Positions 41,343 through 41,703 of a DNA stretch of 64,000 nt are shown one piece after another. Made by a program: the position numbers and the translations under genes. A model generated the notes under the pieces. It was not told the origin of the DNA. It worked only from the letters and a program-made list of their open reading frames with translations, and did not search any database. Source of the DNA: a plasmid; the NCBI RefSeq assembly GCF_054482525.1, contig NZ_JBTHVG010000007.1, one strand, 5' to 3'. Position 1 is the stretch's first letter, and each line of letters begins with the position of its first letter.

Positions 41343-41703
41343 TTTTCAGCCCCCATCATCTTTTGAGTTTCGGGAGCCGCGGTTTTGACGTTTTGCGGGG
41401 ACCTGCCTTTTGTTCCCTCCGGTATTCACCATCACCTTTTTGAGAACCTTCGCCGCAAGGGGCATCACTGCCACGGCCGGAAACGACTGTCCGGGGGCAG
41501 ACCGCAAAAGTTTTTGCCTGCTTCTGGGCAAAAAGTTTTGCGGGATGTACATTTCACCCCTGGACTGGCGGAGACGGTTGTGGCTGTATCAGCCCCCGGC
41601 GACAGGGGCTTAAACAGGTGAATGGCACCGGACAGAACAACGGGCAGGGACCCGCCGCAACGACGTGAAGCGCGGTTTGCGAAACGGCGTTGCCCCTTGC
41701 ATC
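41343..41703. repeat. Frpo/ssi-like structured repeat, copy 2 (intact; putative single-strand promoter upstream of ssb)
   Basis: about 360 bp, near-identical to 35753-35906 plus 37861-38073; internal hairpin-forming inverted repeats. Confidence 0.75.

Follow-up and report, generated by a model that had tools for sequence, protein, structure and literature searches.

Two hairpin repeats in the leading region of a ColV-type IncF plasmid are probably its Frpo1 and Frpo2 single-stranded DNA promoters, one of them split by IS100

Introduction

The Frpo element of the F plasmid is transcribed by sigma-70 RNA polymerase in its single-stranded form, whereas the double-stranded form is inactive (PMC9849209, PMC7690428, PMC12672017), and single-stranded Frpo recruits RNA polymerase in vitro (PMC9849209; PMC7690428). 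Frpo is the same element as ssiD (D90178); renamed Frpo1 or ssp1a, it lies upstream of ygeA-ygeB, and a second element, Frpo2 or ssp1b, lies upstream of ssb-yfjA-yfjB-psiB-psiA. In F, deletion of Frpo1 or Frpo2 abolishes early in vivo expression of the genes downstream, and loss of Frpo1 lowers the transconjugant frequency from ∼92% to ∼25% (PMC9849209). The class 1 single-stranded DNA (ssDNA) promoters, to which these elements belong, are backed by RNA-seq, and their start sites in pESBL have been confirmed by 5' RACE (PMC12672017). Through promoters of the Frpo type, genes for SSB, anti-SOS and anti-defence functions are expressed during the seconds that precede second-strand synthesis, which gives these promoters a bearing on how plasmids for resistance and virulence spread.

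Two further groups of elements invite comparison with the repeats described here. The IncI1 class 1 elements ssi1-3 of ColIb-P9 and pESBL share with them the hairpin architecture, the A+T-rich tip, the greater stability of the transferred strand and a near-invariant GTCCGGGG/CCCTGGAC box, but their lower stems are strongly diverged, with pairing held by compensatory changes, and they serve partly different operons, for example ardA. The class 2 ssDNA promoter (ssp2), found upstream of klcA/ardB-like genes in F and pESBL, is likewise a hairpin formed by the transferred strand, and its 3' arm carries the boxes, but it has no sequence homology with the repeats except for a shared CCCTTGCATC junction.

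The DNA analysed here is a stretch of 64,000 nt (the window) from a ColV-type IncF virulence plasmid. An original prediction, made from the sequence, had singled out two near-identical repeats in the leading region and read them as putative F-type Frpo/ssi elements. The analysis that follows supports this reading, and we put the probability that the two repeats are the plasmid's Frpo1 and Frpo2, that is, class 1 ssDNA promoters (ssi, ssp1a or ssp1b) of F-like plasmids, at about 0.9. Elements of this type are already known and no new principle arises from the window, in which the usual arrangement of Frpo1 and Frpo2 is confirmed for an IncF plasmid of the ColV type; what is specific to it is limited to the splitting of Frpo1 by IS100, the homogenised copies and a shortened leading region.

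Results

Two copies of one repeat, both of the Frpo1 type

Copy 2 of the repeat is intact and copy 1 is a single element cut in two by IS100 (Table 1). A repeat search of the window aligned 35753-35906 with 41342-41495 at 98% identity and 37861-38073 with 41491-41703 at 96%; the two halves of copy 1 overlap by five bases on copy 2 because of the CCGGG target duplication of the insertion sequence. When the IS and one copy of the target are taken out, 350 of 361 positions (97.0%) are the same in the two copies, and a search for additional repeats found no further copies in the window. The element has a GC content of 57.9%, against 51.3% for the window, and the inverted repeat that had been quoted as an example, ccgcaaaagtttttgcc at 41502-41518 with ggcaaaaagttttgcgg at 41527-41543, forms the tip of the hairpin described below. 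The presence of two near-identical, GC-rich copies with internal inverted repeats was thus as originally described.

Comparison with reference Frpo/ssi sequences (supplementary file 4 of Samuel et al., 2024; PMC11541004) and with the F plasmid (NC_002483, also the reference for synteny) showed that each copy is 96.6% identical to F ssiD/Frpo (D90178) over 349 nt, in keeping with the likeness that had been proposed. Without its IS, copy 1 is 97% identical to the F Frpo1 locus (NC_002483), with which it shares its site between flm/hok and orf95/ygeA, its orientation relative to oriT and its hairpin; however, Frpo1 of F is unbroken, whereas copy 1 is split inside its 5' arm. Copy 2 lies directly upstream of ssb, with the same operon logic as F Frpo2, but its core is of the Frpo1 type, being 97.2% identical to F Frpo1 as against 87.9% to F Frpo2, and the operon here lacks the ParB-like yfjB. 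It can also be aligned with ssi1-3 of ColIb-P9. Judged from these alignments, copies 1 and 2 are more alike mutually than are the two Frpo loci of F, and they appear to be homogenised or mosaic.

One detail of the original prediction did not hold, in that ssiE had been named as the F counterpart of the repeats. Frpo is ssiD, and ssiE is a separate and unrelated element, so it was ruled out for this comparison; the counterpart of F ssiE (D90180) lies at 34204-34392 (+), with 97.4% identity, between gene X and orf273.

Megablast against PLSDB found the element in at least 5,000 plasmids and at least 13,373 places. Among the matches listed, most were to conjugative IncF plasmids of Escherichia, Klebsiella, Salmonella and Shigella, and among these at least 5,000 records there were two to three copies per plasmid.

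Table 1. Positions of the two repeats, their component parts and the neighbouring features in the window
Feature	Position	Strand	Basis
F-type oriT nic region, TGCGTGGGGTGT/GGTGCTTT	33597..33616	+	exact match
orf273 (ygeB homologue, DUF932)	34506..35327	-	synteny with F 64438-65259, annotated DUF932
orf95 (ygeA homologue), first gene downstream of copy 1	35445..35732	-	98.6% DNA synteny with F 64032-64319
Copy 1, 5' arm (template arm), Frpo1 position, adjoining orf95	35753..35906	+	collinear with F Frpo1
IS100 (IS21 family), 1,954 bp, inserted in 5' arm of copy 1	35907..37860	-	istA 36752-37774, istB 35973-36755
Copy 1, tip hairpin and 3' arm (promoter-box arm)	37861..38073	+	96% identity to 41491-41703
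sok/flmB antisense RNA of hok/flm toxin-antitoxin locus, between the copies	38768..38944	-	Rfam RF01794, 88.9 bits (gathering 59)
psiA	39050..39769	-	NCBIfam PRK13704, 420 bits
psiB	39766..40200	-	NCBIfam PRK13701, 275 bits
Small DUF905 ORF (yfjA-like)	40480..40713	-	ORF translation; homologues in F and pCREC-544_1 annotated DUF905
ssb, first gene downstream of copy 2	40781..41320	-	NCBIfam PRK13732, 383 bits (cut-off 265)
Copy 2, Frpo-type class 1 element (ssp1b/Frpo2 position), intact	41343..41703	+ (transferred strand)	identity to F ssiD/Frpo1
119-bp imperfect hairpin	41367..41685	+	5' arm 41367-41518, 3' arm 41527-41685
A+T-rich tip hairpin (ccgcaaaagtttttgcc / ggcaaaaagttttgcgg), candidate UP-like element	41502..41543	+	by the Frpo description (PMC11541004)
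TGGACT, putative -35-like hexamer on 3' arm, within CCCTGGAC box	41561..41566	+	box near-invariant and always paired in 14 sequences
Putative -10-like stretch TGTATCAG, with unpaired internal loop 41588-41591	41585..41592	+	weak consensus match

The incoming strand is the template of the leading genes

At F oriT, the strand that bears the nic sequence is nicked and moves 5' to 3'. The F nic-region sequence TGCGTGGGGTGTGGTGCTTT has one exact match in the window, on the plus strand only (33597-33616), with the nick site lying at what we take, from established knowledge of F oriT, to be ∼33608/33609. The plus strand is therefore the transferred strand and enters by rising coordinates, and since the leading genes are all on the minus strand, the incoming strand is their template. 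The two elements lie 2.1 and 7.7 kb downstream of nic on the plus strand. Both the strand and the nature of the minus-strand gene blocks that follow the copies agree with what had been predicted, ssb, psiB and psiA being identified by NCBIfam and orf95 and orf273 by synteny with F.

The region 31765-41703 is collinear with F through traY, oriT, gene X, ygeB, ygeA, Frpo1, flm/hok, psiA, psiB, ssb and Frpo2, and the only breaks in this collinearity are the IS100 insertion and the deletion of the ParB-like yfjB. As in F, the element in the Frpo2 position is followed by ssb, DUF905, psiB and psiA, and that in the Frpo1 position by ygeA and ygeB. The deleted yfjB segment, ∼1.9 kb in length, lies in F between the DUF905 ORF and psiB; it corresponds to 40203-40480 of the window, where position 7488 of the F locus is joined to 9299 at 40465/40453. 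Plasmid pCREC-544_1 is likewise without an annotated ParB-like gene between DUF905 and psiB, and in IncI plasmids loss-of-function alterations of yfhA, the equivalent of yfjB, have been linked to altered transfer rates (PMC10104558). On the other side of oriT, long minus-strand ORFs at 165-33300 continue the tra synteny with F, and traM, traJ and the start of traY were confirmed against F. Between the convergent gene X and orf273, at 34454-34509, there is a perfect 27-nt inverted repeat (ATGATAATATAAGTAAAGCCCCGAAAA / TTTTCGGGGC...), which probably acts as a terminator in both directions.

Frpo was originally isolated under the name ssiD, its transcripts can serve as primers for DNA synthesis in vitro (reviewed in PMC7690428), and a 2026 preprint gives in vivo evidence for priming from ssp1/Frpo promoters while assigning a roadblock role to a different hairpin, ssp2. 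These observations favour the idea that the hairpins act mainly as ssi or replication signals, whose RNA primes the complementary strand or whose stem stalls synthesis, with gene expression secondary. However, both copies stop 20-22 nt short of a ribosome-binding site and start codon, which argues against a role confined to ssi, and priming would be a function added to that of a promoter rather than a true alternative to it. We regard a mainly replicative role as possible, though at odds somewhat below even.

A long hairpin in the transferred strand is maintained by covariation

As ssDNA, the plus strand of 41343-41703 folds into a single long imperfect hairpin of 119 pairs, running from 41367:41685 to 41518:41527. 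Its folding energy is -101.9 kcal/mol, against -62.7 +/- 4.2 kcal/mol for shuffled sequences (z = -9.3), and none of 100 shuffles was as good; for the complementary strand the energy was -89.0 kcal/mol (z = -6.2). The stable stem in the single-stranded form that an Frpo/ssi element should have is thus present, and it agrees with the homology and with the position of the copies before ygeA/ygeB and ssb-psiB-psiA.

To this structure was applied an alignment of 14 members, comprising copies 1 and 2, both Frpo loci of F (Frpo1 and Frpo2), three other plasmids of E. coli or Klebsiella, one from Salmonella, ssi1-3 of ColIb-P9, a sequence from Serratia and two from metagenomes. When the pair map of copy 2 was laid on the 14 homologues, 88.3% of cells were paired, compared to 42-48% when the partners were slid by 1-3 columns; the map was derived from one of the aligned sequences (copy 2), which favours that structure somewhat, although the margin is still large. 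Double-sided changes were seen in 26 pairs (79 cells), whereas sliding the partners gave 11-22 such pairs and 20-45 such cells, and the covariation score was matched by none of 500 shuffles. In the ColIb-P9 elements the lower stems have a different sequence with the pairing kept. Helix 6, in which GTCCGGGG pairs with CCCTGGAC, behaves differently, as 7 of its 10 pairs are invariant across the 14 sequences whereas the flanking helices covary; this is the pattern that a sequence-specific recognition element within a structural stem would show.

That the complement also beats its shuffles (z = -6.2), and that any long inverted repeat will fold in a read-through transcript, would be consistent with a structure that acts in RNA, as a leader, attenuator or terminator of the mRNA, and not in ssDNA. 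However, in each of the 14 homologues the fold of the transferred strand is better by 7-17 kcal/mol than that of the complement, which has the mRNA sense, and about 8 G-T pairs in the copy 2 pair map would become C-A mismatches in the mRNA. In addition, a scan of 33000-46000 placed no Rfam family on the element, the sole real match being sok at 38768-38944, and transcription from the start proposed below, inside the stem, would give an mRNA with one arm only. An RNA-level function is thus very unlikely.

Both copies also contain an ORF of 68 aa that begins with ATG (41346-41552, minus strand, and its equivalent in copy 1), which RefSeq relatives, pCREC-544_1 and many of the matches list as a hypothetical protein, as would be expected if the repeat were a small gene. 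The ORF is not conserved, however, being of 39 aa in F and its close relatives, in other frames in ColIb-P9 and absent from Serratia, and the variation is compensatory between the arms, unlike that of coding sequence. We rejected it as a probable annotation artefact, and a coding function seems scarcely credible. Equally remote is the idea that the repeats are relics of mobile elements (MITE-like, with long inverted arms) or functionless recombination scars. It would account for the number of copies (at least 13,373 places in the at least 5,000 records, or two to three in each plasmid), for the homogenised or mosaic look of the copies and for the deletion junction at the 3' end of copy 2 (see below), but the orientation of the element is constant relative to oriT and the downstream genes, it has no flanking target duplications, its stem is kept by covariation, and deletion phenotypes are known in F (PMC9849209).

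Candidate promoter boxes and a model for the activity of the repeats

To transcribe the downstream genes, RNA polymerase must read the plus strand from high to low coordinates, so that the 5' arm of the hairpin is the template and the 3' arm the non-template strand. The TGGAC(T/A) box is the sole promoter-like site in the correct arm and direction that is common to all 14 sequences. At 18 nt downstream of it lies TGTATC, in the small internal loop at 41588-41591; its match to the consensus is weak, and a partly open -10 region would resemble this loop. The distance from TGGAC to the -10-like stretch is not constant, with a 3-nt difference between sequences of the Frpo1 and Frpo2 types, and simple sigma-70 scans of 41200-42000 and 35400-36200 found no canonical -35/-10 pair in the element. 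A truncated Frpo2 that ends at the equivalent of 41612 was able to drive an anti-CRISPR gene (Samuel et al., PMC11541004), and therefore the functional promoter lies above 41612, which fits the assignment of TGGACT. From these positions we infer a transcription start at ∼41450-41456 and a leader of roughly 135 nt.

The homology, strand, fold, covariation and gene context of the two elements are established by the results above. Activity as ssDNA promoters, in vitro and in vivo, is taken over from the literature on F. Copy 2, which is unbroken, is presumably active. During conjugation, the plus strand would pass into the recipient in the 5'-to-3' direction, starting at the nick (∼33608/33609), and every element on it would fold back into a hairpin of ∼120 bp. 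The 3' arm would stand in for the missing non-template strand, so rebuilding a double-stranded sigma-70 promoter with TGGACT (41561-41566) as its -35, a partly unpaired -10 at ∼41585-41592 and the A+T-rich tip acting in an UP-like manner. Host RNA polymerase would then start in the stem, use the 5' arm as template and leave the hairpin at its base into the adjoining genes, which for copy 2 would be ssb, DUF905, psiB and psiA, and for copy 1 orf95/ygeA and orf273/ygeB. Synthesis of the complementary strand would abolish the hairpin and shut the promoter down, so that SSB and anti-SOS proteins would be made in one short burst, and transcripts from the hairpins may also prime that synthesis.

IS100 has split copy 1 at the edge of the putative -35 duplex

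In the original prediction copy 1 was given as two parts, and the complete IS100 that interrupts it was not pointed out. The IS has the ends TGTCAACG...CGTGACA, with inverted repeats at 35902-35934 and 37833-37865, and is flanked by the 5-bp target duplication CCGGG at 35902-35906 and 37861-37865. The transposase IstA (321.7 bits) and the helper ATPase IstB (466.3 bits) both scored over their NCBIfam cut-offs, and relatives of the IS that are 97-100% identical are annotated as IS100 or IS100kyp in RefSeq and public records. F (NC_002483) is without IS100 at the corresponding site. The nearest relative seen, pCREC-544_1, has the same layout with Frpo1 intact, and searches of 72,556 PLSDB plasmids and 5,426 complete E. 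coli genomes did not turn up the IS100/Frpo junction. By these results the insertion seems to be a recent event, confined to the present plasmid.

On copy 2, the target corresponds to 41491-41495, whose pairing partner is 41559-41563, where the TGGACT duplex has its upstream edge. The insertion thus parts the template arm, next to orf95, from the tip and the box arm, and since the split falls at the upstream edge of the putative -35 duplex, copy 1 is probably weakened or inactive. In an equilibrium fold of 35740-38090 the arms still paired over the IS (100 pairs, mean pairing probability 0.63), in a calculation that ignores kinetics, the order in which the strand enters, its coating by SSB and the displacement of the tip. 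A sigma-70 scan predicted no conventional promoter between the end of the IS and orf95. In the outward direction, on the minus strand, the IS100 terminus that faces orf95 (35907-35934) finishes with a perfect TTGACA; the flanking Frpo arm offers no -10 partner for it, and hence no hybrid promoter was predicted at this outward end.

The split Frpo1 might represent a natural experiment, in which either the arms rebuild a working promoter across 1,954 nt or the insertion is a natural knock-out of Frpo1 in a virulence plasmid of the ColV type, although we consider this rather unlikely. If the arms do reunite, ssDNA promoters would tolerate insertions of kilobase scale at the -35 edge; in a knock-out, ygeA and ygeB would no longer be tied to zygotic induction, and transfer efficiency would be expected to fall as it does in F without Frpo1. 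This apparently private allele could be used to test how much structural disruption such a promoter tolerates.

The surroundings of copy 2 and the wider plasmid

Beyond the 3' end of copy 2 the sequence is not that found in F at Frpo2, but an orphan class 2 promoter arm followed by sopC. The segment 41694-42055 is 87% identical to F 56170-56528 and corresponds to the 3' arm of ssp2 alone, with the boxes TTGCAT...TAAGAT at ∼41699-41725 (read from the fold of the F transferred strand); the 5' arm of ssp2 and its antirestriction (klcA/ardB-like) gene are missing from the window. Because the Frpo and ssp2 sequences join in their shared CCCTTGCATC motif, this arrangement suggests a deletion between two ssDNA promoters. 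The gene layout at the junction is the same in pCREC-544_1, where sopA and sopB are directly upstream of the element and ssb.

At 41976-42643 there are sopC-like 43-bp tandem repeats, with at least 11 registers at 43-bp spacing, and these are followed by sopB (42648-43619) and sopA (43619-44794), the whole block lying directly upstream of copy 2. From oriT as far as the partition locus, the leading region measures just ∼8.4 kb, IS included. Between sopC and copy 2, at 41859-41877 (-), is a terminator-like hairpin (GGCGGGGAAAATCCCCGCC then a T run), which, in the double-stranded plasmid, could keep read-through from reaching the ssb operon. Further along, 46267-54301 probably carries the aerobactin genes iutA/iuc, judging from the closest relative and the sizes of the ORFs, and a block of four ORFs at 57570-61019 may, at a guess from ORF sizes alone, be the sit transporter.
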